Source of the DNA: an uncultured Bacilli bacterium
GTDB lineage: Bacteria; Bacillota_I; Bacilli_A; RF39; UBA660
DNA: 64,000 bases
Assembly (NCBI GenBank): GCA_934090735.1
Contig: CAKOJR010000001.1
Coordinates: 4,682-68,681 of the forward strand
Direction: 5' to 3'
The translations under genes were made by a program, and so were the position numbers. Under the pieces are notes generated by a model that saw only the letters and a program-made list of their open reading frames with translations, had not been told where the DNA came from and made no database searches. Below, piece by piece: positions 757 through 61,574 of the stretch. How positions within the stretch are numbered: the first letter of the stretch is position 1; every line of letters starts with the position of its first letter.

Positions 757-2322
757 GTGGAAGATAAAATATTAAATGATAAGAATAAATTAAAAATATT
801 TGCTTCTTTATTAATAGTTGTTTTACTAGTAATGGGAGTAAGTTTTGCTATATTTCAGAATTTTACAAGACAGAGTAGCACTAATAATTTAGGAGCAACT
901 AATTGTTTTAGTATATCTTTTGAGGGTGTTAGTGATGCTCTTAATTTAGAAAATGATTATCCAATTCCGGATAAAGAGGGACTCCAAAGAAATCCTTATA
1001 CATTTAAAGTAACAAATAATTGTGATAGTTATTTATCACTTGTTATTGGAGTAGAAACATTAAGTACAAGTGAAATACCAGCAAGTTTAATTAAAGGAGT
1101 AATTAAAAAAAGTGGTATAAAGCCAACAAGTGCAACTATTTTATCTAGTGGTAATACTATGGAAGCACAAAATGGTGGAGTAGCTTATGAATTGTTAAAG
1201 GATGGAATAGGAGCTAAAAAATCAAAAACTTATGATTTAAGATTATGGTTTGATGAAAGCATGACTAAAGAACAAGGGGCTACTAAGAAATATCAAGGAA
1301 AGGTTATTGTTGGTGCAAGTGCAGATGTAGAACCTCCAAAAAATTTAAGAGAAGCAATACTAGCAAATAATGAAGTTAAGACTCCAATAACTACACCAGG
1401 AGCAGCAATATCTACTGCTGATGAAGCATTACTTGCATCTACAGAAGATGATTATGGAACATCTTATTACTTTAGAGGTGCGGTAACAAATAACTATGTA
1501 GAATTTGCTAATAAGTGCTGGAGAATAGTAAGAGTTGGTGGAGATGGTTCAGTTAAACTTATCTTACATAATGATAATACTAAAAAAGTTGCTAATCCTT
1601 GTGATGCTGCAAATAATAGTATAAGTGCAGCATTTGCAAGATACTCTGGTACAACATTGGCAAGTAAATTTAATACAAACTATGATGATAATGCTTATGT
1701 AGGATTTAAGTATGGAACACCAGGTTCTAGTACATATGAAGCAACACATGCAAACACAAATAATAGTACAATACTAACTAATTTAGAGACATGGTATACA
1801 AATAATTTAAAAGATTATGCTGATACTATAGCTGATACTGAATGGTGCAATGATAAAACAAATGTAACAGATAAAACTTACAATCCAGGGAATGTGAATG
1901 GTGTTAATGGTTATGGATATGCTAAGAATATAACATATTATGGTGCTACACAAAGATTAGTAAGCACAAGTAATAGTGCTGGAGGCACTGGTCCTAGTTT
2001 AAAATGTAATGGAGAATTAAGTAAAATAACATCAAAAGTAGGGCTAATAACAGCAGATGAATTAGCATTTGCTGGATATGCTTTTAATATTAGCAATACA
2101 ACATATTTACAAGAAAATGCTATTAGTACTTATTGGTGGTCTTTGTCTCCTATCTACTTCCATGGCGGCAACGCTTACGTTTGGGGCGTTAGCGGCACCA
2201 GTGGCGACTTATTCTTCAACTACGTGGGCTTCAGCGGCGGCGTTCGCCCGGCCATTTCTCTTATATCTTCGACCAACGTAACTGGCGGTGGAACTAGTGA
2301 TAATCCTTACAAAGTGGTTTGA
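757..2322 (+). CDS. Membrane-anchored surface protein, paralog A of a 4-member family. TasA/camelysin-like N-terminal region, conserved core, C-terminal RPAISL...GTSDNPY module
   Basis: GTG start at 757 preceded by AAGGTG SD. The ORF track's TTG at 703 is less likely. N-terminal TM helix, then N-x-[FI]-x-AT..F and PYTFKVTNNCDSYL resembling the SipW-cognate/TasA region. Core LLASTEDDYGTSYYFRGAVTNNYVEFANKCWRIVR is shared with 17181.., 51649.. and the pseudogene at 59717... Confidence 0.7.
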   Translation: MEDKILNDKNKLKIFASLLIVVLLVMGVSFAIFQNFTRQSSTNNLGATNCFSISFEGVSDALNLENDYPIPDKEGLQRNPYTFKVTNNCDSYLSLVIGVETLSTSEIPASLIKGVIKKSGIKPTSATILSSGNTMEAQNGGVAYELLKDGIGAKKSKTYDLRLWFDESMTKEQGATKKYQGKVIVGASADVEPPKNLREAILANNEVKTPITTPGAAISTADEALLASTEDDYGTSYYFRGAVTNNYVEFANKCWRIVRVGGDGSVKLILHNDNTKKVANPCDAANNSISAAFARYSGTTLASKFNTNYDDNAYVGFKYGTPGSSTYEATHANTNNSTILTNLETWYTNNLKDYADTIADTEWCNDKTNVTDKTYNPGNVNGVNGYGYAKNITYYGATQRLVSTSNSAGGTGPSLKCNGELSKITSKVGLITADELAFAGYAFNISNTTYLQENAISTYWWSLSPIYFHGGNAYVWGVSGTSGDLFFNYVGFSGGVRPAISLISSTNVTGGGTSDNPYKVV

Positions 2323-17180: not shown

Positions 17181-18869
17181 ATGAAGAAAATAATTAGTTT
17201 AATTATTGTATGCACGATAATTATTTCTGGAATGTTTATATATAGAAATGATAATAAAAAGACTTTTACTGATGATAATAGTGCTGAACCAATAATAGCA
17301 GCATTTATTGACGGAGAAGAAAGTACTACATTTCCAACAAATAGTAAATATGTAGCATCTGTTGAATGTACTAAAAATGGTGTTAAGCAAAATGTGGGAG
17401 CTAAAGCTACTTGGAATGGCACTAAATGGGTAGTATCTATTGATGATATAAGTGCTGGAAATGTTAGATGTAGTGCAAACTTTGTAACACCTACTTTAAC
17501 TAATTTGATTTTAGCTGATAATGAAGTTAAGGCACCACTTACTACTCCTGGTCGTGATGTTGCTGCTTATACGTTAGATGATGCTCAAACACATGTGGCA
17601 AGTGTTTCTACTGATGAACAAAATTATTATATTACTTATGCATCATCTTGGACTGTTGGAGATGTTAGGATGGGATTTGATCATACATTTGAATTGGTGA
17701 ATCCTGCCGTTACATATGATACATATGCAAATTCATATTCTAGTTTAGTTGGTAAATATTTACCTTATAGTACTATTAGTTGTAATAATTTAAGTTGTTC
17801 TGGCCAAAAAACAGCTGGAACTAAAAGTAAAACTACGGGATTACAAAGCGTAATATATATTGTAAGCGCTACTTCTGATAGTTTTACATATAAACGTATT
17901 TCATCTACTAAGAATATGTCAGAATCTTTACTTGCAAGTACGGAAGATGATTATGGTACTTCATATTATTATAGAGGAAATGTTAAAGATAATTACGTAC
18001 AATTTGCAAATAAATGCTGGCGAATAGTAAGAATAACAGGCGATGGTTCAGTCAAATTAGTGCTTCATAATGATAATGTTTCTGATGCTACAAACCCTTG
18101 TTCATCTGTTAATAATAATGATACTGCAGCCTTTGCACATTATGATGGTACTTCTTATATTAGTCTTTTTAATTCTAATTATAATGATAATACATATATG
18201 GGATTTATGTATGGTGCAACAGGTGCAAGTGATTATACAAGTACGCATGCAAATACAAATAAAAGCGTAGTACTTACAAATTTAGAAACATGGTATAATA
18301 ATAATTTAGCACCATATGAAAGTAAACTTGCAGATACAATATGGTGTAATGATAAAAAAACATTTAAAACGTATACACAAAAAGGTACGACAACTTATGG
18401 TACTGGATTTGGTTATGGGACTAATGTGACAGGCTATGGTGCATATGACAGAATTTATGGTAGTGATACTCATTCATATGCCAAACCGAGTTTAGTATGC
18501 CCTGATGATAATGATGGTGGAAAGTTATCTAAGTTTACTGTTAATGATACAATTAATGGCAATGGTAAGCTTACATATAAAATTGGGTTGTTAACTGCGG
18601 ATGAAGTTGCTTTTGCTGGGGCTATGTATTCTACAAAAGATAGTTTATTTTATTTAGGTGAAAACGTTGGCGATACAGCATGGTGGACAATGTCACCAGC
18701 GGATTTTACTAGTAATCAAGCATTTATTTTTGAGGTTAAAAAAAATAGTTTGGGTACAGCATTTTCAGCTTATGGGAGTGCAGCGTTGCGACCTGCTATA
18801 TCACTCGTATCTGGTATTGAAGTTACTAGTGGAACAGGTACTAGTGAAGATCCTTATGTTGTAAATTAG
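17181..18869 (+). CDS. Membrane-anchored surface protein, paralog B of the family. Different N-terminal domain, same core and C-terminal module
   Basis: AAGGAAGG SD; N-terminal TM; shares EVKAPLTTPG, LLASTEDDYGTSYYYRGNVKDNYVQFANKCWRIVRITGDGSVKLVLHNDN, GLLTADEVAFAG, WWTMSP and RPAISLVSG..GTSEDPYVVN with paralogs A and C. Confidence 0.7.
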   Translation: MKKIISLIIVCTIIISGMFIYRNDNKKTFTDDNSAEPIIAAFIDGEESTTFPTNSKYVASVECTKNGVKQNVGAKATWNGTKWVVSIDDISAGNVRCSANFVTPTLTNLILADNEVKAPLTTPGRDVAAYTLDDAQTHVASVSTDEQNYYITYASSWTVGDVRMGFDHTFELVNPAVTYDTYANSYSSLVGKYLPYSTISCNNLSCSGQKTAGTKSKTTGLQSVIYIVSATSDSFTYKRISSTKNMSESLLASTEDDYGTSYYYRGNVKDNYVQFANKCWRIVRITGDGSVKLVLHNDNVSDATNPCSSVNNNDTAAFAHYDGTSYISLFNSNYNDNTYMGFMYGATGASDYTSTHANTNKSVVLTNLETWYNNNLAPYESKLADTIWCNDKKTFKTYTQKGTTTYGTGFGYGTNVTGYGAYDRIYGSDTHSYAKPSLVCPDDNDGGKLSKFTVNDTINGNGKLTYKIGLLTADEVAFAGAMYSTKDSLFYLGENVGDTAWWTMSPADFTSNQAFIFEVKKNSLGTAFSAYGSAALRPAISLVSGIEVTSGTGTSEDPYVVN

Positions 18870-33382: not shown

Positions 33383-34009
33383 ATGAAAGAGATAACTATT
33401 GAGAAGTTTAAGGAAGAGGGCAATATAGAAATTGTTAAATTTCTTATGAAAATAAATAATGGGTATGTTACTTCAAAAGATTTAGATAATTATGGTGTAC
33501 ATAGAATGTATCTTAATATAATGCTTAAAAAAGGATTTATTGAAAAAGTAGCTCCTGGCGTATATATGGATAGTAGTAAAATTGAAGATAAATATTATAT
33601 ATTTAGTTTAAGTATGCCAAATACAATATATTCTCATATGACAGCACTTTATTTTCATGGACTATCTATTAAAGCACCAGATAATAGGTATGATATAACG
33701 GTAAGGAAAACTTATAATAGTATACATCTTAAAGAGCATAATGTATTTTATGTTTGTGATGATATATATGAATTAGGTCTTACGGAGATAGAAACTCCAA
33801 TGGGAAATAAGGTTAGAGTTTATGATATGGAAAGATGTATATGTGATATTATTCGTTCTAAAAACAGAATAGATTTTGAACATGTTAAGTATAGTATAAG
33901 ACAGTATCTTAAAAGGAAGGATAAGGATCTTGTCAAACTTTCTAAATATGCTGATATAATGGGAATTAAAAATCAAGTAATGAATTTCTTGGAGATATTT
34001 TATGAATAG
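33383..34009 (+). CDS. AbiEi-like antitoxin/transcriptional regulator (type IV toxin-antitoxin / abortive infection)
   Basis: N-terminal AbiEi-like domain, positioned immediately upstream of and overlapping an AbiEii-type gene. Confidence 0.6.
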   Translation: MKEITIEKFKEEGNIEIVKFLMKINNGYVTSKDLDNYGVHRMYLNIMLKKGFIEKVAPGVYMDSSKIEDKYYIFSLSMPNTIYSHMTALYFHGLSIKAPDNRYDITVRKTYNSIHLKEHNVFYVCDDIYELGLTEIETPMGNKVRVYDMERCICDIIRSKNRIDFEHVKYSIRQYLKRKDKDLVKLSKYADIMGIKNQVMNFLEIFYE

Positions 34010-34838
34010 TATGCAACTTAAGGCTAAAATAAAAAATATATCAAAAGAAAAAAATATTGATTTTAATACGTTACTTAGACTATATATGTATGATAGATAT
34101 TTAGAAAGACTTTCAAAAAGTAAGTATATAGATAATTTTATTTTAAAGGGTGGCTTTTATTTAAGTGTTTTATTTGGTGTAGAAAACAGGGCTACTATGG
34201 ATATTGATACAGCTTTTAGAAATGCAGATTTTAATGAAGAAACATTAGTTCAAATGATAAAAGAGATACTTTCTATAAATGTAAATGATAATGCAAAGTT
34301 AAATTATGTTAGTATAGTACCTATTAGAGATGAAGATGAGTATGGTGGCTTTAGGGTCACAATATTGGTTGAATATGAAAATATTAAGCAATCATTTCAT
34401 ATTGATATTGCAACAGGTGATCCAATAACTCCTAAAGAGATAAGATATAAATATTTACCATTACTTGGTGACGATTATATAAATTTATATGCTTATAATA
34501 TAGAAACTGTCTTAGCTGAAAAAATAGAAACGATTTTAAGCAGGCTTGAACTAAATGGAAGAACAAGAGATTTTTACGATATATTTTTAATTTACTCAAA
34601 AGAATGGAATAATGTTAATATTGAACATTTTAAGAAAGCAGTAAATAAGACATTTGATAAAAGAGGATATAGCGGAAATTTATGTAATTCTTTAAACATT
34701 ATAAAAAATAGTATTGTATTAAAAGAACGATGGAAAAGATATCAAAGTAATTTTTTATATGCTAGAAATATAGAATATGAGGAAATAATGAATTGCTTAG
34801 AAGAAATGTTAAAATACATAAAAAAATATGAGTATTAG
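34002..34838 (+). CDS. AbiEii/AbiGii-family nucleotidyltransferase toxin (DUF1814)
   Basis: LKAKIKNISKEKNIDFNTLLRLYMYDRYLERLSKSKY..FILKGG...MDIDTAF matches the AbiEii N-terminal and NTase pattern. Confidence 0.65.
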   Translation: MNSMQLKAKIKNISKEKNIDFNTLLRLYMYDRYLERLSKSKYIDNFILKGGFYLSVLFGVENRATMDIDTAFRNADFNEETLVQMIKEILSINVNDNAKLNYVSIVPIRDEDEYGGFRVTILVEYENIKQSFHIDIATGDPITPKEIRYKYLPLLGDDYINLYAYNIETVLAEKIETILSRLELNGRTRDFYDIFLIYSKEWNNVNIEHFKKAVNKTFDKRGYSGNLCNSLNIIKNSIVLKERWKRYQSNFLYARNIEYEEIMNCLEEMLKYIKKYEY

Positions 34839-48784: not shown

Positions 48785-50011
48785 ATGAATTTATTTGAAG
48801 ATTTAAAATGGAGAGGACTAGTTAAGGATATTAGTAGTCCAGAAATAGAAAAATTATTAAATGGAGAACCAATTAGTTTTTATTGGGGAACTGATCCAAC
48901 TGCAGATAGTTTGCATTTAGGTCATTATTCATCACTAGTAACAGCTAAAAGACTTGCTAAAGCAGGACATCATCCAATACTACTTATTGGTGGAGCTACT
49001 GGACTTATTGGCGATCCTAGACCAACAGCTGAAAGAGAAATTATTAGCAAAGAGACATTAAACAAAAATTTAGAAGGTATTTCTAAACAGGTTAGTGCTT
49101 TATTTGATGGTAAAGCAGAACTTGTTAACAATTATGATTGGTTTAAGGGTTACGAGTTTTTAGATTTTTTAAGAGATGTTGGTAAGTATATTAATGTTAA
49201 CTATATGTTAGATAAAGATATTATTAGAAGAAGATTAGAAACGGGTATTACTTATGCAGAGTTTTCTTATACATTAATTCAAGGTTACGATTTCTTAAGA
49301 TTATTTGAAGATAAGAATTGTGTACTTCAAGCTGAAGGCTCTGATCAATGGGGAAATATTACTACTGGTATCGATTTAATTAGAAAGATTACTGGTAAGG
49401 AAGCTTATGGTTTTACAATGCCACTTGTTCTTGATAAGACTGGTAAGAAGTTTGGTAAGAGTGAAGGCAATGCTTTATGGCTTGATAAGAATAAGACTTC
49501 TAGTTATGAGTTATATCAGTACTTAGTTAATGTTGATGATTCACTTGTTATTGATTATTTAAAGATATTTACTTTCTTAAGTAAAGAAGAAATAGAAGTG
49601 TATGAAAGAAAGAATAATGAGCATCCAGAAGAAAGAGAAGCACATATTGCTTTAGCTAGAGAAATTATTACAGATATTCATGGTAAGGATGAATATTTGA
49701 AAGCTAAAAAGATTAGTGATTGTTTATTTAAGGGTGATATAACTCTTTTAGGTGAAGATGAATTAGAAGATGCCTTTAAAGGTGCTCCTTCATTTGATAT
49801 TACTTTAAATGAGAAGATAATAGATATATTGGTAAACTCTAAAATATGTTCTAGTAAAAGAGAGGCAAGAGAATTCTTAAGTGCTGGAAGTATAATTGTT
49901 AATGGAGAAAAAATCAGTGATGAAAATGAAATAGTTACTGATGATAAGTTATTATTTAATAAATATTTAATTGTACGTAAAGGTAAGAAGAAATACTATA
50001 TAGGTAAGTAA
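48785..50011 (+). CDS. tyrS: Tyrosine--tRNA ligase
   Basis: HLGHY (HIGH) and KFGKS (KMSKS) motifs, C-terminal S4-like domain; 408 aa. Confidence 0.95.
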   Translation: MNLFEDLKWRGLVKDISSPEIEKLLNGEPISFYWGTDPTADSLHLGHYSSLVTAKRLAKAGHHPILLIGGATGLIGDPRPTAEREIISKETLNKNLEGISKQVSALFDGKAELVNNYDWFKGYEFLDFLRDVGKYINVNYMLDKDIIRRRLETGITYAEFSYTLIQGYDFLRLFEDKNCVLQAEGSDQWGNITTGIDLIRKITGKEAYGFTMPLVLDKTGKKFGKSEGNALWLDKNKTSSYELYQYLVNVDDSLVIDYLKIFTFLSKEEIEVYERKNNEHPEEREAHIALAREIITDIHGKDEYLKAKKISDCLFKGDITLLGEDELEDAFKGAPSFDITLNEKIIDILVNSKICSSKREAREFLSAGSIIVNGEKISDENEIVTDDKLLFNKYLIVRKGKKKYYIGK

Positions 50012-50078
50012 TCTTATCTTTTTTCTTTTATTTACAAAAAGTTAATTTGTTGTTATAATTTTTGTATAGAATAGGAAG

Positions 50079-50315
50079 ATGAGTATGGATGAAATATTAT
50101 TAGATGGTGTGATTGAAGTAAATGGTGAGAAGTTACATGTACTTTTTATGTTTGAAAATAATAATAAAAGATATATTGTATATGTTTTAGAAAATGGTGA
50201 TATTAGTGCTTCAATACTTGGTGATGATATAACATTACTTCCTATAACTACTGATGAAGAATGGGATATGGTTGATGCAGAGTTAGAAAAAAGGGATGAC
50301 ATATGGACAAAATAG
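50079..50315 (+). CDS. DUF1292 family protein
   Basis: IEVNGEKLHVLFMFENNNKRYIVYV...EEWDMV typical DUF1292. Confidence 0.6.
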   Translation: MSMDEILLDGVIEVNGEKLHVLFMFENNNKRYIVYVLENGDISASILGDDITLLPITTDEEWDMVDAELEKRDDIWTK

Positions 50316-51640
50316 TTGTTAGCTGTGAAAAAAATAAATTAACGACTAAATATTACAATAGTTTTGATGATAGTTCTTATAGTAATATCTTTTTTGGTGC
50401 AGAAGCTAAGAGATTTTTAGATGAAATCGAGAAGAGAGATGCTACTGGTGCGAGAATCAGTAAAGATGGTAAAGTGCTTAGAGTTGTTTATCCTGATAGA
50501 GTGATTTTCATTAAAGATTATAAGTTAGTGTTTGAAAATATTGATGCAAGAAGAAATATTGATAGATATAATGCTAATAAAGCTAAAAGGTATATGAATG
50601 GTACTAGGAAAGCTAAGAGAGTATCTAAGACTGGAGCTATTACTAAAGGATTATTAGTTCTTCTTATTATGGTTTCTGTATTAAGTATTAGTCATAAGAT
50701 AAAGAGTTTTGATGATCCGTTTACTCCTAATGCTAGCGCTACTTGGATGGATGATACTAATCAGGAAAGTATTGAAAAATATTTAAATGGTGAGCAGCCG
50801 ATTACGGATGATGATAAAGTAGTTTTAAATACGATAAGTAATACTACTGAGGGAAATGATCCAGGATATGATAAACTTTTATTAGATACACAGATTATAA
50901 GTTTATCTGACGTTGAAGAGGCAGAAAAGACGGAACCAACAAATGGAGAACTTCTTGCTCAAATGGTTGAGGAGAAAGATACTATTTATCATAATTTTAA
51001 TATTGATTTTAGTGATAGAACTAGTGATGAAAAAGCAGCCATAGCTAGAGAAAATTATTATAATTTGATTAGTAGATATGCGAAAACTTATGGGTTAGAT
51101 GCTAATTTAGTAATGGCAATTGCAACGCAAGAAAGAGCAGAACATAGTACGGAGATTGACCCTGGTGGTGGTATTGGTTTAATGCAAATACAGTATAGTG
51201 TTTGGGTTAATCAAGATGTTACAGCGTATAATTTTGAAACAGGTAACTGGGAGACATTTCATATAACTGATAGTAATATTAGAGAGCTTGATACCAATAT
51301 AAAGATTGGGTGTATGTATTTTCAAAATTGTTTAGTTAATATGGATTATAATGTACCAGCTGCATTATGTGCTTATAACTGGGGAACTACTAGTGCTAGA
51401 AATAAGATAAGTCAGTTTTCACAGGATAGAGGGCTTACTGTTAATGAAGTTTTAGAAGCAAATGATACTTCTTGGGTTAATTTGTTTGATGTTGATGGTG
51501 ATACTTCACTAGCTTATCCTAAAGTTGTTCTTTCTTATTATGATAGCAGTAAACCAATTATTAATGATAAAATAGATGAGAATGGTAATGATATTGTGGT
51601 AAGTACTACAGTAAGTAGTCCATTGATTAAAAATAAGTAG
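50303..51640 (+). CDS. Membrane-anchored lytic transglycosylase (SLT domain)
   Basis: TM anchor, then IATQERAEHS...GGGIGLMQIQ (catalytic Glu-Ser plus GLMQ SLT motif). Overlaps the DUF1292 gene by 13 nt. Confidence 0.7.
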   Translation: MDKIVVSCEKNKLTTKYYNSFDDSSYSNIFFGAEAKRFLDEIEKRDATGARISKDGKVLRVVYPDRVIFIKDYKLVFENIDARRNIDRYNANKAKRYMNGTRKAKRVSKTGAITKGLLVLLIMVSVLSISHKIKSFDDPFTPNASATWMDDTNQESIEKYLNGEQPITDDDKVVLNTISNTTEGNDPGYDKLLLDTQIISLSDVEEAEKTEPTNGELLAQMVEEKDTIYHNFNIDFSDRTSDEKAAIARENYYNLISRYAKTYGLDANLVMAIATQERAEHSTEIDPGGGIGLMQIQYSVWVNQDVTAYNFETGNWETFHITDSNIRELDTNIKIGCMYFQNCLVNMDYNVPAALCAYNWGTTSARNKISQFSQDRGLTVNEVLEANDTSWVNLFDVDGDTSLAYPKVVLSYYDSSKPIINDKIDENGNDIVVSTTVSSPLIKNK

Positions 51641-51648
51641 GTGATTAC

Positions 51649-53538
51649 ATGAAAGATAAAAAGAAAGTAAAAATTTATTATGGGTTACTAATAACTTTAA
51701 TTATTTTTGCAGGTGTAAGTTACGCTTGGTTTAGACTTACTAAAACTCAGGAAAATAAGAATGTTATTGGAACAAGGTCTTGCTTAGATGCAACGCTTAC
51801 TGAGGAAACTTCAAACATAGTTTTGGATGATGCTTTTCCAATAAGTGATGAAGATGGTATGAAGCAAACTCCTTTTACTTTTACTTTAAAAAATAATTGT
51901 GAAGGATATGTTAAAGTTTATATTACTATTGATAGTAAGTATAGAGAAAGTGCTAGTACTGATTATTTAAAAGATGATTATGTAAAAGCTAATTTGTCTA
52001 CCAAGGGAACTACTACGGGACAATCTACTTTATTAGCTAATAATCAGTTAATAGATTTAGAAAATAATAATAAAGGATATATTCTTGTATCAACTGGATT
52101 AAAAGCTAATGAAGAAAAGAGTTATGACTTAAGAGTATGGGTAGATAGTGAAACTACACTAGAGCAAGGATTAAATAAAAGCTGGGAAGGAAAGATAGTT
52201 GTTGTAGGCGAGGCTTCTGAAGTAGAAACTTTAAATGGTGCTATACTTGCTAGAAATGATGTGAAAGAGCCACTTACTGTGCCAGCTCAGGAAACAAGTG
52301 GCTATACTAAAGATGATATAACGAAAACCTTAACTATGAATATATCTCAAACATATCAAGGATATTATTTTACATATGGTACTGGATATGAAGCTAATGA
52401 AACTAATTTTAATTTAACTGGTGCTTCAGTAACAACTGAAACCTATGCTAATTCATATTCGAATTTAGTTGGCAAATATCTGCCTGCTGTATATGCTAAT
52501 TTTGTTAATTATAGTAATTTTTCATCAGCCACAGCGGGAACGATGAAAACAACTACTAATTTAGGAAGTGTGTATTATATTGTTAGTGCCAGCTTAAATA
52601 GTTTGACTTATAAAGAGATTTTATCAAATAAAAATCAAACAGAAGCACTTTTAGCTAGTACAGAAGATGATTATGGAATAAGTTATTATTTTAGAGGAGC
52701 TGTAAGAAATAATTATGTACAGTTTGCAAATAAATGCTGGAGGATAGTAAGAATCACTGGTGATGGAAGCGTAAAATTAATATTACATAATGATAATATT
52801 AATAATTCATCTACTCCGTGTTCATCAACGAATAATAGTGATACAGCAGCATTTGCTAGGTATTCTGATGATTTATATACTAACTCATTTAATCCGAGTT
52901 CTAATGATAATGCTTATATGGGATTTATGTATGGAACAACGGGTACAAGTAATTACGCGAGTACTCATGCCAATATTAATAAAAGCACAACTCTTGTAAA
53001 TTTAGAAGCTTGGTATGAGAAAAATAACTTAGATATGTATGTAGATAAACTAGCAGATACAATATGGTGTAATGATAAGAGTGTAGTTGATGGCGGATTA
53101 GGATATGGTTCTCAAGGTACAAATTATGGTGCACATAATAGAGTTACTAGTAGTGGAACTCCTTCATTAATATGTCCGAATGATAAAAATAATGGAAAGT
53201 TGTCTAAGTTTACTGTTAATGACGAAATTAATGGAAATGGTGCATTAACATATAAAATCGGATTATTAACTGCTGATGAAGCTGCATTTGCTGGTTTATC
53301 TGTTAATCTTCCAAATTATTCTATGTATTTATCTGAGAATGCTGAAGATATAGATTGGTGGACGTTATCTCCTAATAGTTCACAAAATAATTTATTTTTT
53401 TGGGTAGTAGAATCTAGTGCTTTACAGAGTGATCTTATCAAGAAAAATTTAGGTTTAAGACCTGCAATTGCTTTAAAATCTAATGTTGAAATTTCTGGTG
53501 GAAAAGGTACTAGTGAAGATCCTTATGTTGTTAATTGA
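51649..53538 (+). CDS. Surface protein paralog C: TasA/camelysin-like N-terminal region with SipW-cognate-type signal, conserved core, C-terminal RPAIALKS..GTSEDPYVVN module
   Basis: SYAWFRLTKTQENKNVIGT resembles the SipW-cognate signal motif; PFTFTLKNNCEGYVKVYITID TasA-like; shares the core and C-module with 757.. and 17181... Confidence 0.7.
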   Translation: MKDKKKVKIYYGLLITLIIFAGVSYAWFRLTKTQENKNVIGTRSCLDATLTEETSNIVLDDAFPISDEDGMKQTPFTFTLKNNCEGYVKVYITIDSKYRESASTDYLKDDYVKANLSTKGTTTGQSTLLANNQLIDLENNNKGYILVSTGLKANEEKSYDLRVWVDSETTLEQGLNKSWEGKIVVVGEASEVETLNGAILARNDVKEPLTVPAQETSGYTKDDITKTLTMNISQTYQGYYFTYGTGYEANETNFNLTGASVTTETYANSYSNLVGKYLPAVYANFVNYSNFSSATAGTMKTTTNLGSVYYIVSASLNSLTYKEILSNKNQTEALLASTEDDYGISYYFRGAVRNNYVQFANKCWRIVRITGDGSVKLILHNDNINNSSTPCSSTNNSDTAAFARYSDDLYTNSFNPSSNDNAYMGFMYGTTGTSNYASTHANINKSTTLVNLEAWYEKNNLDMYVDKLADTIWCNDKSVVDGGLGYGSQGTNYGAHNRVTSSGTPSLICPNDKNNGKLSKFTVNDEINGNGALTYKIGLLTADEAAFAGLSVNLPNYSMYLSENAEDIDWWTLSPNSSQNNLFFWVVESSALQSDLIKKNLGLRPAIALKSNVEISGGKGTSEDPYVVN

Positions 53539-53619
53539 TAGGTTTAGGCCTATCTTTTAGTTTGGGCTTTTTTTTCTTTCTAGATAATGTTATAATTTAA
53601 AGAGAATAGGGCTGGTGTT

Positions 53620-54522
53620 ATGAAGAATAAGAGTGGGTTTATTGCTACTAGTTTAATATATACTTTTTTTCTTGCTTTTATTGCTATATTAACTGCTCTT
53701 TTAAGTAATTATATTGCTAATAAGACGATACTTGATAGGTATAATAGTGATATTCAAAATAAACTTAATAATGGTAATGGTAGTGTTAGTTTATATGTAT
53801 CTTATGCTAGTATAGATGATGGTAAGACGATTACTAATTTAGTTCGTAATGGTAATTTTAGTGATGGTTTAAATGAGTGGAATATTCATGGTGGCGGTAA
53901 TTTTTTAGCTGCTAATTTTATTAAGCCTTGTATAATTAAGAATGGTTATAGTGGTTATTTATCTCAACCGATTAATGTTGTTCCTGATCATAAATATTAT
54001 TTAAGAATGGAGTATCATCAAGTTGGTAATAATAATGGGGATGTGTTTGTTTCAAGTGCTGTAGATAATAGTGATGTAGGTATAAATAAGGTTATTAGTA
54101 GTTCTATTAGTGGTGATGGTTGGAAAAGTATTTCAGAGATAGTAGAGTTAACTGGTAGTGAATTACTTAGAAGTATGATTGTTGGTAAACAAAGTTATGG
54201 TAGTTCTAGTACTTATTATACTAATTTACTTTTAATGGATATTACATATGCTTTTAATGATAGTGTTAGTAAAGATTGGCTTGATAATAATATAGGTTAT
54301 TTTGATGGAACGGTTTCTTTTTTAAAAAAGGATTTTGCAGATGATGACGAAATTACTTTTACATTAGTTCCTTACTCTGGTTATAAAATTAATACTATTA
54401 ATTGTGATTATGATAATTATGAAAGAACACCTACTACGGATGAAGTTGATACTAAATATTTATTTAAGTTTAAAAATAATAGTCATGATAATAGGTGTAA
54501 TATTACTTTTAAGCATGAATAG
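53620..54522 (+). CDS. Pseudopilin-like membrane-anchored protein with CBM4/9-like beta-sandwich domain
   Basis: N-terminus KSGFIATSLIY (pilin-like hydrophobic segment but no Glu+5). NGNFSDGLNEWNIHGGGN...DHKYYLRMEY...GWKSISEIVEL matches the CBM_4_9 pattern. Confidence 0.5.
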   Translation: MKNKSGFIATSLIYTFFLAFIAILTALLSNYIANKTILDRYNSDIQNKLNNGNGSVSLYVSYASIDDGKTITNLVRNGNFSDGLNEWNIHGGGNFLAANFIKPCIIKNGYSGYLSQPINVVPDHKYYLRMEYHQVGNNNGDVFVSSAVDNSDVGINKVISSSISGDGWKSISEIVELTGSELLRSMIVGKQSYGSSSTYYTNLLLMDITYAFNDSVSKDWLDNNIGYFDGTVSFLKKDFADDDEITFTLVPYSGYKINTINCDYDNYERTPTTDEVDTKYLFKFKNNSHDNRCNITFKHE

Positions 54523-54531
54523 GAGGACAGT

Positions 54532-55041
54532 ATGAAAAATCGAGGTTTTGTTTTAGTTGAAACAATTGTGGTTATTCTTGTACTTTGCGTTCTTTTGATT
54601 ATGCTTTATGGTGGGTATATGAATGTTATTAGTGCAGTTCAAAGAAAGAGTTATTATGATAATACAGAGTATATTTATAAGACTAATTTAATTAAGGAAT
54701 ATATTGAAAATAGTGGTTTTAATGGTTATGAAGGCGCTGATATGTATATTTATTGTCAGGGAAGCGCTGATTGCATATCTAGAGGAAACGATTATTTTGA
54801 AGAGTTAACTAAAAATATGCATGTTATTTCTATTTATATTATGAAGTGGTTTACTACAGATATAGCTGAGGATGAATTATCTAGTTTAGAAGCTACGACC
54901 CAAAATTATATTAGAAAATTAGATCCAACTAAGCCGACTAATGAAAATGTTTATAGAGTTATTGTTATGTTTGAAGATGAAAATAATTTAGGAAGTACGC
55001 CAACTATATATCAGTATGCTTCTTTAAAGTTAGGGGATTAA
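54532..55041 (+). CDS. Type IV pilin-like protein (class III signal peptide)
   Basis: MKNRG|FVLVETIVVILVL: prepilin cleavage motif with Glu+5. Confidence 0.7.
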   Translation: MKNRGFVLVETIVVILVLCVLLIMLYGGYMNVISAVQRKSYYDNTEYIYKTNLIKEYIENSGFNGYEGADMYIYCQGSADCISRGNDYFEELTKNMHVISIYIMKWFTTDIAEDELSSLEATTQNYIRKLDPTKPTNENVYRVIVMFEDENNLGSTPTIYQYASLKLGD

Positions 55042-55043
55042 TT

Positions 55044-55580
55044 ATGAATAAGAAGGGAATGACACTTGTTGAGATAATTGTATCGATTGTTCTGGTATCT
55101 ATTATTCTTGTTTTTATAACTAGGCTATTGATTACAGTTAATGGGTTATATAAAAGAAGTAAGTTAGAAGTTGATTTTGAAATATTAGATACTCTTTTAA
55201 TAGATGCGATAGAGTCTGATGTGAATAGGTATGGTGTTAAGGAAGTGAGCTCTGATAGTAAAAGTATAACATTTACTTTTAATGCTTATAGAGAGAGCAA
55301 ACTTGATGAGTATATTGTTAAAAAGTTATCATTAACAGATGATGGTAGTTATATAAAGTATGAACAAGTAAGTACAAGTACTCCTTTAACTAGTGATGAA
55401 AGAGCTAATAATTTTGTACGTAAGATTCCAGATGGAGCTATTTTGGATACTACCAATTGTTTTATTAATAATGAACTTTATAGTGATTCAACTTCTAAAT
55501 TATATGAAATAAAGTTTAAAATTATGTCTTCAAATGGAAATGATTTTACTGCTAATATATTTTTTAAAACTCTAGGATAG
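55044..55580 (+). CDS. Type IV (pseudo)pilin-like protein
   Basis: MNKKG|MTLVEIIVSIVLV prepilin motif. Confidence 0.7.
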   Translation: MNKKGMTLVEIIVSIVLVSIILVFITRLLITVNGLYKRSKLEVDFEILDTLLIDAIESDVNRYGVKEVSSDSKSITFTFNAYRESKLDEYIVKKLSLTDDGSYIKYEQVSTSTPLTSDERANNFVRKIPDGAILDTTNCFINNELYSDSTSKLYEIKFKIMSSNGNDFTANIFFKTLG

Positions 55581-55590
55581 AGGTGATTTT

Positions 55591-58500
55591 ATGAAAAGTA
55601 ATAAGGGTTTTACAATGGTAGAACTTCTTGCTGTTATTACAATTTTATCTGTTATTATGATTATTTTAATACCGGCTGTTGATAATATATCTAAAAGTAC
55701 TAAGGAGAGTATATTAAGTTCAAAAATTAATACTATAGAAACAAGTGCTTCAAAGTTTGGTGAGGATAATATTAATAATTATCAAAAGTGTACTAATGCT
55801 TTAGAGGGCGGGGCAATTGGTGGATATGTTTATACAGGTTGTTTGATTAGTGTTACTGATTTGGTTAGATTAGGTTATTTGGAGTTTGATACAACTAAAA
55901 ATGGTGCTAACTTTATTAGTAATCCAGTTACTGGTGGAAGTATAGATGGTAATATATTACTTTGTTATGATCCTCATACAATAACAGTTAATGCAACTTT
56001 TTATAATAATGGTGATGTAAATTATTCGTGTCCAGCAGTTAGTGATAGTGGTAATTATTCACTTAATTTAGGAGCTACCAGAAAAGATTTTTATTGGGGT
56101 ACTCATGAAGTATTTAAAACTAAAATATATACTAAAGGTGATTTTAAGAATATAACTTGTAGTGTTGATGGACCATTTAGCTGCTCTATTTCTGGTGATG
56201 ATTTAACCATTACTTTAAATGATAGTGGTACTGGAGCTAATGGTAGTTATCAAGTACAAGTAACGGCTACTTATAATGAAAATAGTGAAGATAAGAATCT
56301 TTATAGAAGAATGAATTTAGGTGTGTATGTTGTTAATTTTGATATAGATGATTATACACCGGGAATGTGTATGAAGACTTTTAGTAATGAGGTATTTAGA
56401 ATTACTGGTGAAAATTATGGTAAGTTTTCTTTGGAAGATGTTAGCGATGGATTAAATGCTACTATTAAAGATGATGTTCTTTATATGAATAGTGGTTCTG
56501 TTACTGGCGAGCAAAGTTTCCTTATTAAAGAAGATCATGCTGGTTTAACTAAACAAATTTTAAGAGAAGTTTATAATTTAAGTGTAGAAACGCAAATTAC
56601 GAATGTTATTGTTGGAGAAGCTGCTACTAAGGTAGAACTTAAGGCAGATGGTGCTGGTGATTTAAAGATTACGACTGATAGTGCAGCTGCTAGTTTATCT
56701 TCAAATAATAGTTCTTTTTCAAGTACAATAACTTTAAGAGGTCAAAATTATTTCTATATAAGAGGAAATAGTATTGGAACGGTTAATATTACGATAAAAG
56801 GCTCTTTATGTGGTGAAACTAGTTTTAGTGTAAATGTATCTAATATAAAACTTGATAACCAGGATATTCCTAAGTATTTATATTTTAACGGAGGCACAAG
56901 ACGAAATAATGATAAGACTCAGTTTAAGTCTAAAATAGTTGGTAGTACAGTTAATGATTTTTCATGTACTGTTTATAAGAAGAATGGTAGTAATTATGTT
57001 CAAAATGATGAATATTTAACGTGCTATATCGAAAATGATACTCTTACTATAGAAACAACTTCTGGTAATAATATTTTTAGTAATGTTACGGATTTAAAGG
57101 TTAATGTAAAGAGTGAAACAAATGGTTCTTTAGATATTTATATACCAATTATATATAGAACTAGTATATCTTTTAAAAAGAATGGTAGTAAAGTATCTAG
57201 AGTTTGTAAAGAACTTAATTCAAGTGCTGGGCTAAGTGATGAAACTATTTTGATTTATGGAAATAATTTAGGAGTTCTTAGTAGTGATGGCACTAGTTGT
57301 AATAGTAATACTACTAATATTGTTTTCGATAGTATGATAGATTATTATTTAGTAGATGTAGGTGATCCAATAAATCCAACTATTTCAATTACGAATAATT
57401 GTGCTAGCGTTTCCGATAGCTATGGAAAGATGGTTTTATCAAGACATAATGTTACTAGTTCTCAGTATAATAGTACACTTCCATATAAGCTTGGAAGAAC
57501 TAATACTGGTAGAGAGATTGTCTATATCAGAGAAAATAATGGTAATAGATTAGGTGCTCTTTATTATCACATTTATTCTTTAAATAGTAGCTCTAATTCT
57601 GTTACTTTAGGTGTTGGAAAGCAAAGTGCACAGATAAGAATTAGTTATGCTGCAACTGGTAGTGTTAGTTATAGGATTGCAAATAAAGATGTTGCCAGGG
57701 TTAATGTTATAAGTAGTGATACATTTTCTTATGATGATAATATTAATAAGACTTTTACTGATATAATTACAATAACAGCACTTAGAACGGGCACAACATA
57801 TTTAACTATAAGTGGAAAAGAATGTGGGACGTTTACAATTCCAATTTATGTTACAAATGTTTTTGCAATAAATTTAGATGGTGGCATATATGGAACTGTT
57901 AGTCAGTCATCTTTAACTTGTACTGAATCTAGACTTAATTCTGGGTGCTCTGTAACTTTACCTGACTTTACTGTACCTAGTGGAATTACGAAAAAAGGTT
58001 GGAGTACTAATCCAAATGGTGGTAATGTCTTAAGTGTTGGTAGTAGTGTTATGATTAATAATAATACTAAAGGAACTACTTATTATGCAATAGCAGATAA
58101 TCCAAGACCTAGTTGTTTATTTACAAATGTTCCTAGTGATATTTATGGTAAAGATAAAGTTTATATAAATTGTACTGATGTTGGTGGAGGCCTTTCTAGT
58201 GATACGATAAGTACTAGTAGTATAAGTGCTAGTAATGAAGTTATAGTAGAAAGTGTTAGTAAGGTTAGTAATATAACTAATGGATATAAGTTTGAAGTTA
58301 CAGTAAATCCAAATAATTATTATGGACCATTTACTCTTACATTAAATGAAGGAGCTGTTAGTGATGTATATGGATTTTCTAATAAAAAGGTTGTAACTAG
58401 TGAGATTATTAGTGCAGAACATGAATATGTAAGTTTTTATGAAATCGGTAAGGACAATAAAGAAGATTTAATTGCTTTCTTATATGATAATAAGGATATT

Positions 58501-59625
58501 GATGGAAGTGATGGTTATACACTTAAGGTATATGGTTCCGGTGACATGGAAGATTTTACTAAAGCACCATGGGATGGTTATGCAGAATCAATTAATAATA
58601 TTGTTTTAAGTAGTGAGTTAACTAGTATTGGTAACAATGCTTTTTATGGAACTAATATAAGTAATATTAATATACCTAATAGTGTTAGTAGTATAGGAGC
58701 ATCGGCATTTGAAAGTACTAGCTTAAAGATACTTAATGTTAATAGTGAAACTATTGGTAAGAGAGCATTTGCTAATAATTTAGAACTTACTAGTTTGACT
58801 ATTGGAGGTAATGTTAGAACTATAGAACAGTATGCTTTTAGTACAAATACTAATTTAAGTGATATAACCTTTAAAGAAGGCGTAGAGTATATTCGTGATT
58901 ATGTATTTATTGATAGTAAACTTGGCAATTTAGTTATGCCAAATAGTTTACAAACTATTGGGGATTATGCTTTTTATAATTTTAAAGGAGAAAGTGTTGA
59001 TATTAGGAATGCTTATGTAGGACTTGCATCATTTAGGGGAACTAATTTTAAAGAGATAAAAGCAAGCACTTTAGAGGTAAAGGATAACATTTTATATAAT
59101 GGAGATATTCTTATACTAGTTCCGGATAAGCTTGAGGGTAATGTTAAAATTATAGAAGGAACAAGTACAATAACTTATGAAGCATTAAAAGGCTTTGTAA
59201 GTGCTGATGAGAAAATGATGAGTTTAACTATTCCTAGTTCAGTTACAGAAATAAATTCAGTAATTAATTTAAATATAAAAGAGTTTATAGTAAGTGATGA
59301 TAATGATAGATATATGAGTGATAATGGAGTTCTTTATGATAAATACAGTGATGCTTTAGTAAGTATACCTAGTTATTATCAGGAGTCTAGTTATACCATA
59401 AATTCAAAAAGAATTAATAGTTATTCAATAATGAATAATATAATTCTTAAGACTATTACTCTTGGTGATACAGTTGAAACTATTGAAAATAATGCTGTTT
59501 ATGGTAGAGGAGATTTAGGAATAAGACAGGTTATTAATTATTCAAATGTTTCATATAGCAATGCTCATTATGATTTAGATTATTCTATATCTTTTATGGA
59601 TAAAGTTAATGATGTTCAAAATTAA
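55591..59625 (+). CDS. Giant pilin-adhesin fusion: prepilin N-terminus, Ig-like repeats, BspA-type leucine-rich repeats (1344 aa)
   Basis: MKSNKG|FTMVELLAVITIL prepilin motif; Big_2-like segments; C-terminal LRR_5/BspA repeats (IPNSVSSIGASAFES..., IGKRAFANNLELTSLTIG..., MPNSLQTIGDYAFYNF). Confidence 0.7.
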   Translation: MKSNKGFTMVELLAVITILSVIMIILIPAVDNISKSTKESILSSKINTIETSASKFGEDNINNYQKCTNALEGGAIGGYVYTGCLISVTDLVRLGYLEFDTTKNGANFISNPVTGGSIDGNILLCYDPHTITVNATFYNNGDVNYSCPAVSDSGNYSLNLGATRKDFYWGTHEVFKTKIYTKGDFKNITCSVDGPFSCSISGDDLTITLNDSGTGANGSYQVQVTATYNENSEDKNLYRRMNLGVYVVNFDIDDYTPGMCMKTFSNEVFRITGENYGKFSLEDVSDGLNATIKDDVLYMNSGSVTGEQSFLIKEDHAGLTKQILREVYNLSVETQITNVIVGEAATKVELKADGAGDLKITTDSAAASLSSNNSSFSSTITLRGQNYFYIRGNSIGTVNITIKGSLCGETSFSVNVSNIKLDNQDIPKYLYFNGGTRRNNDKTQFKSKIVGSTVNDFSCTVYKKNGSNYVQNDEYLTCYIENDTLTIETTSGNNIFSNVTDLKVNVKSETNGSLDIYIPIIYRTSISFKKNGSKVSRVCKELNSSAGLSDETILIYGNNLGVLSSDGTSCNSNTTNIVFDSMIDYYLVDVGDPINPTISITNNCASVSDSYGKMVLSRHNVTSSQYNSTLPYKLGRTNTGREIVYIRENNGNRLGALYYHIYSLNSSSNSVTLGVGKQSAQIRISYAATGSVSYRIANKDVARVNVISSDTFSYDDNINKTFTDIITITALRTGTTYLTISGKECGTFTIPIYVTNVFAINLDGGIYGTVSQSSLTCTESRLNSGCSVTLPDFTVPSGITKKGWSTNPNGGNVLSVGSSVMINNNTKGTTYYAIADNPRPSCLFTNVPSDIYGKDKVYINCTDVGGGLSSDTISTSSISASNEVIVESVSKVSNITNGYKFEVTVNPNNYYGPFTLTLNEGAVSDVYGFSNKKVVTSEIISAEHEYVSFYEIGKDNKEDLIAFLYDNKDIDGSDGYTLKVYGSGDMEDFTKAPWDGYAESINNIVLSSELTSIGNNAFYGTNISNINIPNSVSSIGASAFESTSLKILNVNSETIGKRAFANNLELTSLTIGGNVRTIEQYAFSTNTNLSDITFKEGVEYIRDYVFIDSKLGNLVMPNSLQTIGDYAFYNFKGESVDIRNAYVGLASFRGTNFKEIKASTLEVKDNILYNGDILILVPDKLEGNVKIIEGTSTITYEALKGFVSADEKMMSLTIPSSVTEINSVINLNIKEFIVSDDNDRYMSDNGVLYDKYSDALVSIPSYYQESSYTINSKRINSYSIMNNIILKTITLGDTVETIENNAVYGRGDLGIRQVINYSNVSYSNAHYDLDYSISFMDKVNDVQN

Positions 59626-59716
59626 AACTTTGGACATTTTTATTTATAAAAATAGTAGTTAGTGCCTTGATTAAAAGGTAATTATCATATATAATTATTT
59701 ATAGTAGGTGAGGTTC

Positions 59717-60990
59717 GTGGATTTTATAGAAAGGGAGAAGAAGAAAAGAACTATTTTGTATGGCTTATTATAGATTAACTAAAACACAGACAAATAAGAA
59801 TATTATTGCAACTAGAACTTGTTTAGATACTAGTTTAACTTAAGAAACTAGTGAAATAGTATTAGCTGAAGCTTTTCCAATAAGTGATGAAGATGGACTT
59901 AAACAGACCCATTTACTTTTACTTTAAAGAATAATTGTGATAGTTATGTTAAAGTAAATATAATGTTAGTAAGTGATTATAGAACAAGTGATGATACAGC
60001 TTATTTAAAAGATGATTATGTTAAGACTAATTTTTCTTTTAAGGGAACTACTGATGGAGAAATGGATATTTTAAGCTCATTTCCTTTGGGAGAAGCGGAT
60101 GTTAATACTGAAGGTTATATTCTTAAGAGTATGGGTTTAACGAGTAACGAAGAAAAGAGTTTTGATTTAAGATTGTGGGTTGATTCAGAAACTACTATAG
60201 AGCAAGGTTTAAATAAGATGTGGAGTGCTAAGGTTGTTGTTACAGCAATGGCTGCAGAGGAACCTCCTGCTGCACCTAAGGGGTGGTATGAAGCTAATAT
60301 AGGAACTTTTCTGGCAGCATTAAGGGAAAATGTTTCTTTAAGTAAAGTAGCTACTGTTCCTGGTAGTGAGGTTAGTGGCTATACGCACAACGATGTTGAT
60401 AGTTCGACAGCAAGTGTTAGTACGACGTATCAAAAATATTACTTTACTTATGGAACTGGTTTTGAAGCAAATGGTACTAAGTTTAATTTGACTTATTATG
60501 AAGATATGCTGGCTGATACAATATGGTGTAATGATAAAAGTACTTCTAGTGGATTAGGATATGGAACTAGTACTACTAATTATAGTGTTTATGGAAGATT
60601 AGTTACTTTTAAGAAACCAACATTAATATGTTCTAAAGATAATAGTGGCGAAAGTTATCTAAATTTACTGTAGATGATACAAGTTATGGTAATGGTAATT
60701 TAACTTATAAGGTTGGATTACTAACTGCAGATGAGGTAGTATTTGTTGGTTCTGTGTATGGTGTATATAACCGCTCTACATATTTGTATGAAAATGGTAC
60801 ATCGGTTTGGTGGACAATGTCACCTAAGGGTTATGATGCTAGTTATACAGAAGTTTGACGAGTTAGATCTGGTTATCTAAATGGAGATAGTGTTACGTCA
60901 TCTTATGCACTTCGTCCATCTATTGCTTTAGTTTCTACAGTTACAATTACTGGAGAAGGTACTAGTGAAAACCCTTATATAGTAAAGTAG
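59717..60990 (+). pseudogene. Decayed paralog D of the surface-protein family
   Basis: Homologous to the 51649.. gene. It has lost the about 10-codon TM segment with a frameshift, carries an in-frame TAA in the TasA-like region, a 1-nt deletion, a roughly 200-aa internal deletion removing the conserved core, and a further frameshift plus TGA before the RPSIALVS..GTSENPYIVK tail. Confidence 0.7.
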
Positions 60991-60996
60991 GTGTTT

Positions 60997-61566
60997 ATGA
61001 AGAAAAAATATGTTTATTTAATTGGTGTATTTATTATAGTATGCGTTATTATTCTTATTATTTGTTTTAGTAAGAAGGATAGTATCAGGCTTTATGATAA
61101 GTATAGTGCTAGAATAGGTATTAATTACAATGATAATAGTTATTCTAGAAGTTTTGATTATGATGGAGTAACTGGTAGAATAATATATGAAGATAAGACT
61201 GTCTATATGGATAGCAAAGGAGTATATTACAGTTTAGATAATGATTATTATAAGTATGAAACTGATATTAATTATACTTCACTTAGTGATGTGATTAGTA
61301 AATTTAAAATTTTAGAAAAAAACAATGAAGAGTATAGATGTGAAGTTAGTTCTGAATTTTTAGATAGTTTATTTATTAAAGGGACACCAAGTGATTGTTA
61401 TTTAAGTATAGATGGTGGATATGTAAAGGGGGTGAGTGTTAACTTCGATAAAGGAAATGTGTATATTTCTTTTAAGAAGTTAGGTGATGATTTTAGTGTT
61501 AGCATGCTTGGTTATTTTGATGAAAAATCTAAGATTGTGCATGATAATATATTGGAAATTAAATAG
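60997..61566 (+). CDS. Bitopic membrane protein (possible PilN/PilO-like pilus assembly component)
   Basis: Short cytoplasmic Lys-rich N-terminus, one TM helix, about 160-aa extracytoplasmic domain; located between pilin genes. Function is speculative. Confidence 0.4.
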   Translation: MKKKYVYLIGVFIIVCVIILIICFSKKDSIRLYDKYSARIGINYNDNSYSRSFDYDGVTGRIIYEDKTVYMDSKGVYYSLDNDYYKYETDINYTSLSDVISKFKILEKNNEEYRCEVSSEFLDSLFIKGTPSDCYLSIDGGYVKGVSVNFDKGNVYISFKKLGDDFSVSMLGYFDEKSKIVHDNILEIK

Positions 61567-61574
61567 GAGGATTT

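Follow-up and report, generated by a model that had tools for sequence, protein, structure and literature searches.

A large family of putative binding proteins of the cell surface with a DUF6273-like variable core and a TasA-like N-terminal module in an uncultured Bacilli bacterium

The DUF6273 domain is reported to adopt a C-type-lectin-like fold and to occur in phage receptor-binding proteins that are hypermutated by diversity-generating retroelements (DGRs; PMC10743442). In gut bacteria of another phylum, DGRs are reported to diversify the binding portion of proteins akin to pilus subunits. TasA and BsaA polymerise by donor-strand exchange (PMC9674648 and PMC11580942, respectively) and, in Clostridium perfringens, BsaA oligomers and BsaC, which SipW processes, depend on type IV pilins for their release (PMC11580942). 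Here, we describe a protein family with features of both groups, encoded in a 64,000-nucleotide stretch (the window) of contig CAKOJR010000001.1 from an uncultured Bacilli bacterium (assembly GCA_934090735.1). The window carries three intact genes of this family (copies A, B and C) and the remnant of a fourth (copy D). We consider it probable that the four belong to a very large protein family, so far unannotated, whose modular members are exported through Sec and serve in binding, either at the surface or outside the cell; this degree of confidence is a joint one and applies to the family, its DUF6273 head, its DGR variable region (VR), its TasA-like module and the gene island around C and D taken together. 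DGR-diversified binding proteins are known, and what is new here is their fusion to a TasA-like module and the partial setting in an island of pilin-like genes. The literature that was searched contained no paper that mentions DGRs and TasA together.

The copies in the window and the extent of the family

The family members of the window and their parts, as delimited by sequence comparison, are as follows.

757–2322, forward strand: copy A, 521 aa from a GTG start, matching a 521-aa database protein
757–1356, 1423–2319, forward strand: parts of copy A, namely the TasA-like N-terminal module and, after a linker, the DUF6273-like core
2127–2265, forward strand: segment resembling a DGR VR in copy A (WWSLSP...GVRPA), with the GC-rich 3' boundary GTTCGCCCGGCC next to it
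17181–18869, forward strand: copy B, 562 aa, with a plain signal or anchor, a small unrelated N-domain, a middle domain and the core (17922–18866)
51649–53538, forward strand: copy C, 629 aa, with the TasA-like module (51649–52242), the middle domain (about 52321–52638) and the core (52642–53535)
59717–60990, forward strand: copy D, a pseudogene with its signal-peptide h-region deleted, a TAA codon at 59841, at least two frameshifts and an internal deletion of ∼180 codons

The original prediction, made from the sequence of the window, had proposed three intact paralogs and one decayed copy in these places, and blastp and tblastn comparisons bear this out. A, B and C have a C-terminal core of ∼300 aa in common with 51–54% amino-acid identity (52% over 318 aa for A/B, 51% over 313 aa for A/C and 54% over 460 aa for B/C; E ≤ 1e-37). 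The N-terminal modules of A and C are 33% identical over 220 aa (blastp, E ≤ 1e-37). The N-terminus of B was correctly described as unrelated, consisting of the plain signal or anchor and the small domain listed above. A middle domain of ∼105 aa is common to B and C and is missing from A; three orthologues of A (P0165, P0168 and P0219) carry it and are 78–81% identical to A on both sides of it. Judged by these alignments, copy A is a domain-deletion variant and the presence of the middle domain is polymorphic among orthologues.

Homologue searches returned more than 6,300 clusters at 90% identity for C and more than 7,200 for A, both figures being lower bounds. Nearly all of these clusters derive from gut metagenome assemblies and none has a functional name. 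The relatives are human-gut metagenome-assembled genomes (MAGs) recorded as 'uncultured Tenericutes bacterium UMGS1021/UMGS1372' or 'uncultured Bacilli bacterium', and single related genomes contain 8–11 family loci, which supports the earlier description of a dispersed family of large surface proteins. A hidden Markov model (HMM) of the family detected no additional strong member in the window beyond A–D. With thousands of unnamed members and many loci in each small, reduced genome of an uncultured, low-GC human-gut lineage, the family is probably central to the attachment of these organisms, and its members are probably fast-evolving adhesins. Two results, which are set out below, give the family a testable function: a DGR-type variable lectin core and a TasA-like export or assembly module that is reused with many adhesin passengers.

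A DUF6273-like core with a DGR-type variable region

Copy C scores 25.6 bits with the Pfam family DUF6273 (PF19789), for which the gathering threshold is 23.5; B reaches a sub-threshold 18.4 bits and A has no match. A match at E ≤ 0.1 is found for 15 of 44 family members, and the alignments extend over no more of the model than its C-terminal third to half. On the strength of these profile matches, the C-terminal ∼300 aa of the family appear to be a divergent DUF6273 domain, here with the scaffold of a DGR variable region, and the earlier statement that the core could not be assigned to a named domain does not hold. The head formed by this domain would bind ligands such as glycans or surface structures of the host, of food or of other microbes, and the paralogs would supply a repertoire of binding specificities.

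The variable region was recognized through a related MAG (locus L003), in which a family member is the target of a complete DGR cassette containing a template repeat (TR), two small open reading frames (ORFs) and a reverse transcriptase (RT).

L003, 9977–14299: complete DGR cassette (family member as target, TR, two small ORFs, RT)
L003, 11675–11792: VR, at the 3' end of the target gene, a 118-nt repeat shared with the TR
L003, 12141–12258: TR, the intergenic copy of the 118-nt repeat
L003, 12505–12867 and 12845–13201: the two small ORFs
L003, 13202–14299: RT, with GIGNMTSQ and YMDD motifs

The target is 57% identical to C and the RT lies 1.3 kb downstream of it. Across ∼0.9 Mb of loci, scanned for motifs of signal peptidases, DGR RTs and pilus ATPases, this RT was the only one. 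The TR and the VR differ at 21 of 34 TR adenines and at five of 79 other positions, and this concentration of differences at adenines is the signature of mutagenic retrohoming. The L003 VR encodes the stretch from WWSLSP to VRPA; by sequence, this segment is the variable region of a DGR in the family. Reverse transcription of the TR RNA, with errors specific to adenines, and transfer of the product back to the gene would randomize some 15–20 surface positions on a fixed scaffold.

Copy A preserves the features of such a target. Its segment 2127–2265 is 70–71% identical to the L003 TR and VR and has the 3' boundary GGCGTTCGCCCGGCCATTTCTCTTATATCTTCGACC in common with the L003 VR; its GC content is 0.54–0.58, compared with a gene mean of 0.33. 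Even against the heterologous L003 TR, the mismatches fall at 22 of 34 TR adenines and at ten of 79 positions elsewhere. Orthologues of A with 75–81% identity have entirely different residues at defined positions of the VR on a fixed scaffold (WWSLSP-xxFxGxxAxVWxVxGxxGxFxxxxVxxxxGVRPS), and the variable residues are mostly reachable from AAC. Orthologues of C show an entropy peak at residues 571–600. Among 44 paralogs, 30 have a VR region with a GC content of 0.50–0.63, compared with 0.31–0.35 in the upstream gene sequence; the remainder are of the WWTMSP/WWTLSP type, with 0.31–0.41. From its composition and alignment, copy A is a gene that keeps a GC-rich, adenine-depleted VR with a conserved 3' boundary. 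The equivalent segments of B (at 18681; GC content 0.39), C (at 53356; 0.31) and D (0.38) are AT-rich; B and C are fixed, or fossil, versions of the VR and D is dead. Copy A thus still looks like a DGR target and B, C and D look like fixed or dead derivatives. A is the only copy of VR type in the window, although sister genomes have VR-type segments in their syntenic C and D orthologues. One orthologous position can hold an active-looking VR in sister genomes and a fossil VR (C) or a pseudogene (D) in the window, which makes the family a natural series for studying the gain and loss of DGR targets.

The immediate surroundings of copy A comprise a T-box leader upstream of the isoleucyl-tRNA synthetase (IleRS) gene (2371–2572), which fills the gap after copy A and therefore leaves no template repeat directly downstream of it, and a Fic-domain protein (76–687) directly upstream, which is longer in relatives and has a RhuM domain there in addition.

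The N-terminal module and the island around copies C and D

In A, C and D, the first ∼190 aa would form a divergent module of TasA/camelysin type: a signal peptide whose cleavage follows G-x-[ST]-[YF]-A and whose P2' residue is aromatic (a SipW-type site), a conserved N-terminal strand and a jelly-roll sandwich. The predicted cleavage sites lie between GVSYA and WF in C and between GVSFA and IF in A, with mature starts expected at W27 and I32, respectively; the TasA site lies between GGGTWA and AF, and the mature N-terminus of TasA is A28 in PDB entry 8aur. For the cleavage region in 142 of 149 diverse representatives, conservation amounts to 82% for Gly at P5, 96% for Ser/Thr at P3, 97% for Tyr/Phe at P2, 96% for Ala at P1 and 87% for Trp/Phe/Tyr at P2'. 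These five positions equal those of TasA, and A and C both display the SipW-type pattern of a small P3, Ala at P1 and an aromatic P2'. The aromatic P2' residue is reported as the reason why TasA requires SipW and not a LepB-type enzyme (PMC10269814). An hhalign comparison gives a collinear but weak alignment of the N-module with TasA, which extends from the signal through ∼50 residues of the mature protein (E = 1.2e-3, probability 19%), and phmmer alignments to TasA fall in the same register.

A profile of the N-module recruits relatives at E ∼ 1e-34, with 4,514 representatives at 50% identity. The module is always N-terminal, in proteins of 105–916 aa, and precedes passengers of adhesin type: DUF285/PARCEL in 17 of 103, DUF6273 in 11 of 103, and also leucine-rich repeats (LRR), Flg_new and RCC1. 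A few of the relatives match Peptidase_M73, TasA NF046066, TIGR04088 or TIGR04090. One of them, P0355, scores 25.2 bits with Peptidase_M73 against a gathering score of 22.5, residues 1–100 aligning with model positions 2–91; P0359, P0395 and P0414 have sub-threshold scores with the same model, and the relatives reach 20 bits at most with NF046066, for which the cutoff is 450. In AlphaFold2 (AF2) models, the N-domain has a predicted local distance difference test score (pLDDT) of 70–85. A Foldseek search places the archaeal TasA-like bundling pilin AbpA (PDB entry 7ueg) at rank 2, with an E value of 5.5e-4 and a template-modeling (TM) score of 0.35 normalized to the target, and a search with the other model returned CanA at rank 39. 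Cys45, Cys84 and Gln34 (C numbering) are invariant in the module and Asn38 is nearly so, Gln34 and Asn38 lying just after the predicted cleavage site. By analogy, these residues could form a disulfide or a cross-link like that of BsaA. The segment that follows the cleavage site is conserved and is poorly modeled in the monomer. Paralogs that match in the core only (L019–L032 and L037–L041) have other camelysin-like N-termini (GLSYAFFSARISG...AGSLSIEY and TTSFAVFEDTKSN...), so that the lectin core is combined with several versions of TasA-like modules.

Copies C and D belong to an island with the following further genes.

50303–51640, forward strand: membrane-anchored SLT lytic transglycosylase (Pfam SLT, 1.4e-10), immediately upstream of C
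53620–59625, forward strand: four type IV pilin-like genes (N_methyl and LRR_5 matches, N-termini read), their order conserved in relatives
60991–61566, forward strand: signal-anchored protein of 191 aa with no function assigned (188 aa in relatives), between D and E
61575–63338, forward strand: E, a modular type IV pilin-like protein of 587 aa (N_methyl, 2.9e-6)

The four pilin-like products comprise 300 aa (with the G|F site and no Glu5), 169 aa, 178 aa and 1344 aa, the last with BspA-type LRR repeats; the 300-aa protein includes a segment like a carbohydrate-binding module. A prepilin leader of the form G|F-x-x-x-E is present in the genes at 54532, 55044, 55591 and 61575 and is absent from A–D. 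In the C-terminus of E, three stretches (YYRG..NY, VRPTLQL and NPFIV) match the family core weakly and in collinear order, and E is the best non-family match of the family HMM (best independent E value 2e-4); its C-terminal 268 aa have only two homologues in a large protein database. E is possibly a distant relative of the family, and is not counted as a member, its hhalign probability being 6.5%.

The order of SLT, C, four pilin-like genes, D, 188-aa protein and pilin E is kept in several relatives. Loci L001 and L046–L049 are syntenic with 48785–63338 of the window, their C and D orthologues carrying GC-rich segments of VR type and D being intact, and the SLT gene is in synteny with L001, L046, L047 and L053. 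In some sister genomes the LRR pilin gene is followed by an inserted Schlafen/AlbA_2 gene, and an extra paralog follows the arylsulfotransferase located after E. No pilus ATPase, platform protein or prepilin peptidase is encoded in the window; one apparent pilus ATPase in the ∼0.9 Mb scan turned out to be an ABC exporter. Neither A nor B has pilin genes as neighbours, and any link to pilins is therefore not general.

In copy D, tblastn with C recovers C residues 26–74, 75–257, 439–517 and 517–628 in frames 3, 2, 2 and 1, respectively. The GTG start and 'DFIEREKKKRTILYGLL' are kept. The equivalent of C residues ∼258–438 is deleted, and the deletion includes the block LLASTEDDYG...CWRIVR. The original prediction, which placed this block in all four copies, was thus right for A, B and C and wrong for D. 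An independent assembly (L053) has identical decay and the same 236-aa fragment, and the orthologues of D in sister genomes are intact (523–537 aa); the decay is therefore real.

The window as a whole has a GC content of 26–37% in 2-kb windows with a strongly positive GC skew. It encodes isoleucyl-, leucyl- and tyrosyl-tRNA synthetases (IleRS, LeuRS and TyrRS), Tdk, Tmk, S4, Lgt and LtaS-like and MurJ-like proteins. An AbiEi/AbiEii type IV toxin–antitoxin pair is located at 33383–34838.

Alternative readings and comparison with known systems

A number of observations weigh against the reading of the family as DGR-varied lectins on TasA-like modules. The core has a pLDDT below 50 in both of the AF2 models, so the lectin fold is taken from Pfam and the literature. 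Neither a TR nor an RT was detected in the 64-kb window, at up to 10 kb from the orthologues of A or over the 10 kb downstream of E, and strains with more than 99% identity, the nearest ones, share the VR of A; ongoing diversification is therefore unproven in the source genome, and copy A may be a recent relic. The other VR-type paralogs of the L003 genome differ from its TR at 11–23% of the non-adenine positions, and the L003 TR does not serve all of them. Together with the existence of at least two scaffold classes, this implies that more than one TR must exist or have existed; the loci that were searched yielded no second TR that fits a VR scaffold of A/D type. As to the N-module, none of the TasA, Peptidase_M73 and TIGR04088 HMMs matches A, C or D at E ≤ 1. 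Profiles of the full family, of the N-module and of two alternative N-modules retrieved no TasA from PDB sequences. TasA itself is not among the top 50 Foldseek matches, in which generic jelly rolls score alike. The suggested search for a sipW-like signal peptidase was negative: the ORFs of the window and of 45 loci, with 10 kb around each (810 kb altogether), lack an S.SM.P motif. Two functional proposals are made: the N-module would export the protein and may anchor it or, by analogy with TasA and BsaA, polymerise by donor-strand exchange, thereby displaying the lectin head, and the composition of the C/D island, by analogy with BsaA and BsaC of C. perfringens, suggests pilus-assisted passage through the wall. 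A competing view takes the proteins for ordinary secreted or membrane-anchored surface paralogs with a generic Sec signal, the likeness to TasA consisting of a small-x-Ala site and a generic β-sandwich and the N-module acting as a stalk. Such a view would agree with the missing HMM matches, the hhalign probability of only 19%, the lack of a nearby sipW, Foldseek values (E = 1e-4 to 1e-3, TM 0.3–0.4) that Pgp3, IBDV VP2 and AP2 mu also attain, and the single helix that AF2 draws for residues 2–35/40. It does not explain why the five cleavage-site positions, including the aromatic P2', are conserved at 82–97% as in TasA, why a relative reaches the Peptidase_M73 gathering score in an alignment that is collinear from model position 2, why AbpA and CanA, both subunits of TasA-like filaments, are among the top structural matches or why the post-cleavage segment is conserved despite its low-confidence modeling. 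We regard the generic stalk as improbable, if still the strongest competitor, and homology of the N-module to the TasA superfamily as rather likely. The TasA/camelysin-like N-termini of the original prediction are thus supported in part and indirectly, by the cleavage pattern, P0355 and AbpA, and not by any HMM match to the copies in the window.

The island invites another interpretation, in which C, and formerly D, is a tip or accessory adhesin of the neighbouring pilin cluster rather than a self-standing fibre or anchor. PilY1 is a non-pilin adhesin encoded among minor pilins, and in the same manner C has a signal peptide rather than a prepilin leader, its pilin neighbours are modular adhesins with LRR repeats and the order of the island is conserved in several related genomes. 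We find this interpretation doubtful: A, B and most paralogs in related genomes lack nearby pilin genes, and the window lacks the ATPase, platform and peptidase genes of a pilus. We know of no sequence similarity between PilY1-type proteins and the family. Ongoing gene conversion that homogenizes or shuffles the copies, as the original prediction implied in citing ∼80% nucleotide identity in the core, is very unlikely. Orthologues do differ in a modular way (A-type proteins occur with and without the middle domain), and local nucleotide identity does reach 75–83%, but only in 20-codon windows of a 50-aa motif; over the core as a whole it is 68–72%, and the longest exact runs between copies are 14, 20 and 27 nt. 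In the nucleotide alignment, identity is nowhere raised over a tract by more than protein conservation accounts for, and recent conversion or recombination between the copies is therefore not supported. Derivation from phage receptor-binding proteins (tentaclin-like DUF6273) in prophage remnants would be in keeping with the occurrence of DUF6273 in DGR-targeted phage proteins (PMC10743442). However, all copies are flanked by housekeeping genes (among them IleRS, LeuRS, TyrRS and a ribosomal operon upstream of A), near-identity searches of plasmid and phage collections with 24 kb of the window gave no match, and the proteins have N-terminal signal peptides and positions that are conserved across species. 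A prophage origin was rejected on these grounds and strikes us as the least credible of the alternatives.

The preferred reading, of DGR-varied lectins on TasA-like modules, can be set beside several described systems. The variable proteins of DGRs, such as Mtd of the Bordetella phage and the phage tentaclins (PMC10743442), likewise have their VR at the C-terminal end of the domain, with variable positions derived from AAC on a fixed scaffold, TR-to-VR differences specific to adenines and a 3' boundary rich in GC, and L003 has the full cassette of target, TR, accessory ORFs and RT. The present family differs in being chromosomal and cellular, with signal peptides and many dispersed paralogs; its domain is longer (∼300 aa), has long insertions and gives borderline DUF6273 scores, the window has neither TR nor RT, and three of the four copies have lost the VR character. 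The DGR-varied relatives of pilus subunits in gut bacteria belong to a different phylum and protein family, and fibre formation by the family in the window is a hypothesis. In Streptococcus sanguinis, PilB and PilC are modular type IV pilins in which a pilin N-terminus is grafted onto a large adhesin module. The resemblance there is to the island neighbours, namely the 1344-aa LRR pilin and E, and not to A–D.

With TasA, CalY and BsaA (Peptidase_M73, SipW-dependent subunits of biofilm fibres), the N-module shares Gly at P5, Ser/Thr at P3, an aromatic residue at P2, Ala at P1 and an aromatic residue at P2', a conserved N-terminal strand followed by what would be a jelly-roll sandwich of ∼150 aa, with AbpA and CanA among the structural matches of its models, and, through its relatives, Peptidase_M73 matches that range from weak to gathering level. 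It differs in that no sipW adjoins the family loci that were searched and no HMM matches the copies of the window directly. TasA and BsaA are single-domain subunits, whereas the N-module carries a passenger of 300–450 aa, and its two invariant cysteines and Q-x3-N motif are absent at the aligned positions of TasA.

A wider reading, which we put forward tentatively and hold to be rather unlikely in its full extent, would make the family a Gram-positive-type counterpart of the DGR-diversified pilus adhesins. Donor-strand exchange would join the TasA-like modules into short fibres or stalks, each subunit bearing a lectin head, a chromosomal DGR with many remote targets would rewrite the heads, and a dedicated type IV pseudopilus with the lytic transglycosylase beside C and D would carry the subunits through the wall. 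A parallel for the island is the sipW-bsaA-bsaB-bsaC operon of C. perfringens (PMC11580942), which also encodes TasA-type proteins, one of them with a large binding domain (BsaC, vWA); the dependence of their release on type IV pilins makes a functional link plausible in the window, where C with its TasA-like module has the pilin-like genes and the lytic transglycosylase gene as neighbours. The C. perfringens operon includes sipW while its pilin genes lie apart, an arrangement that is reversed in the window.

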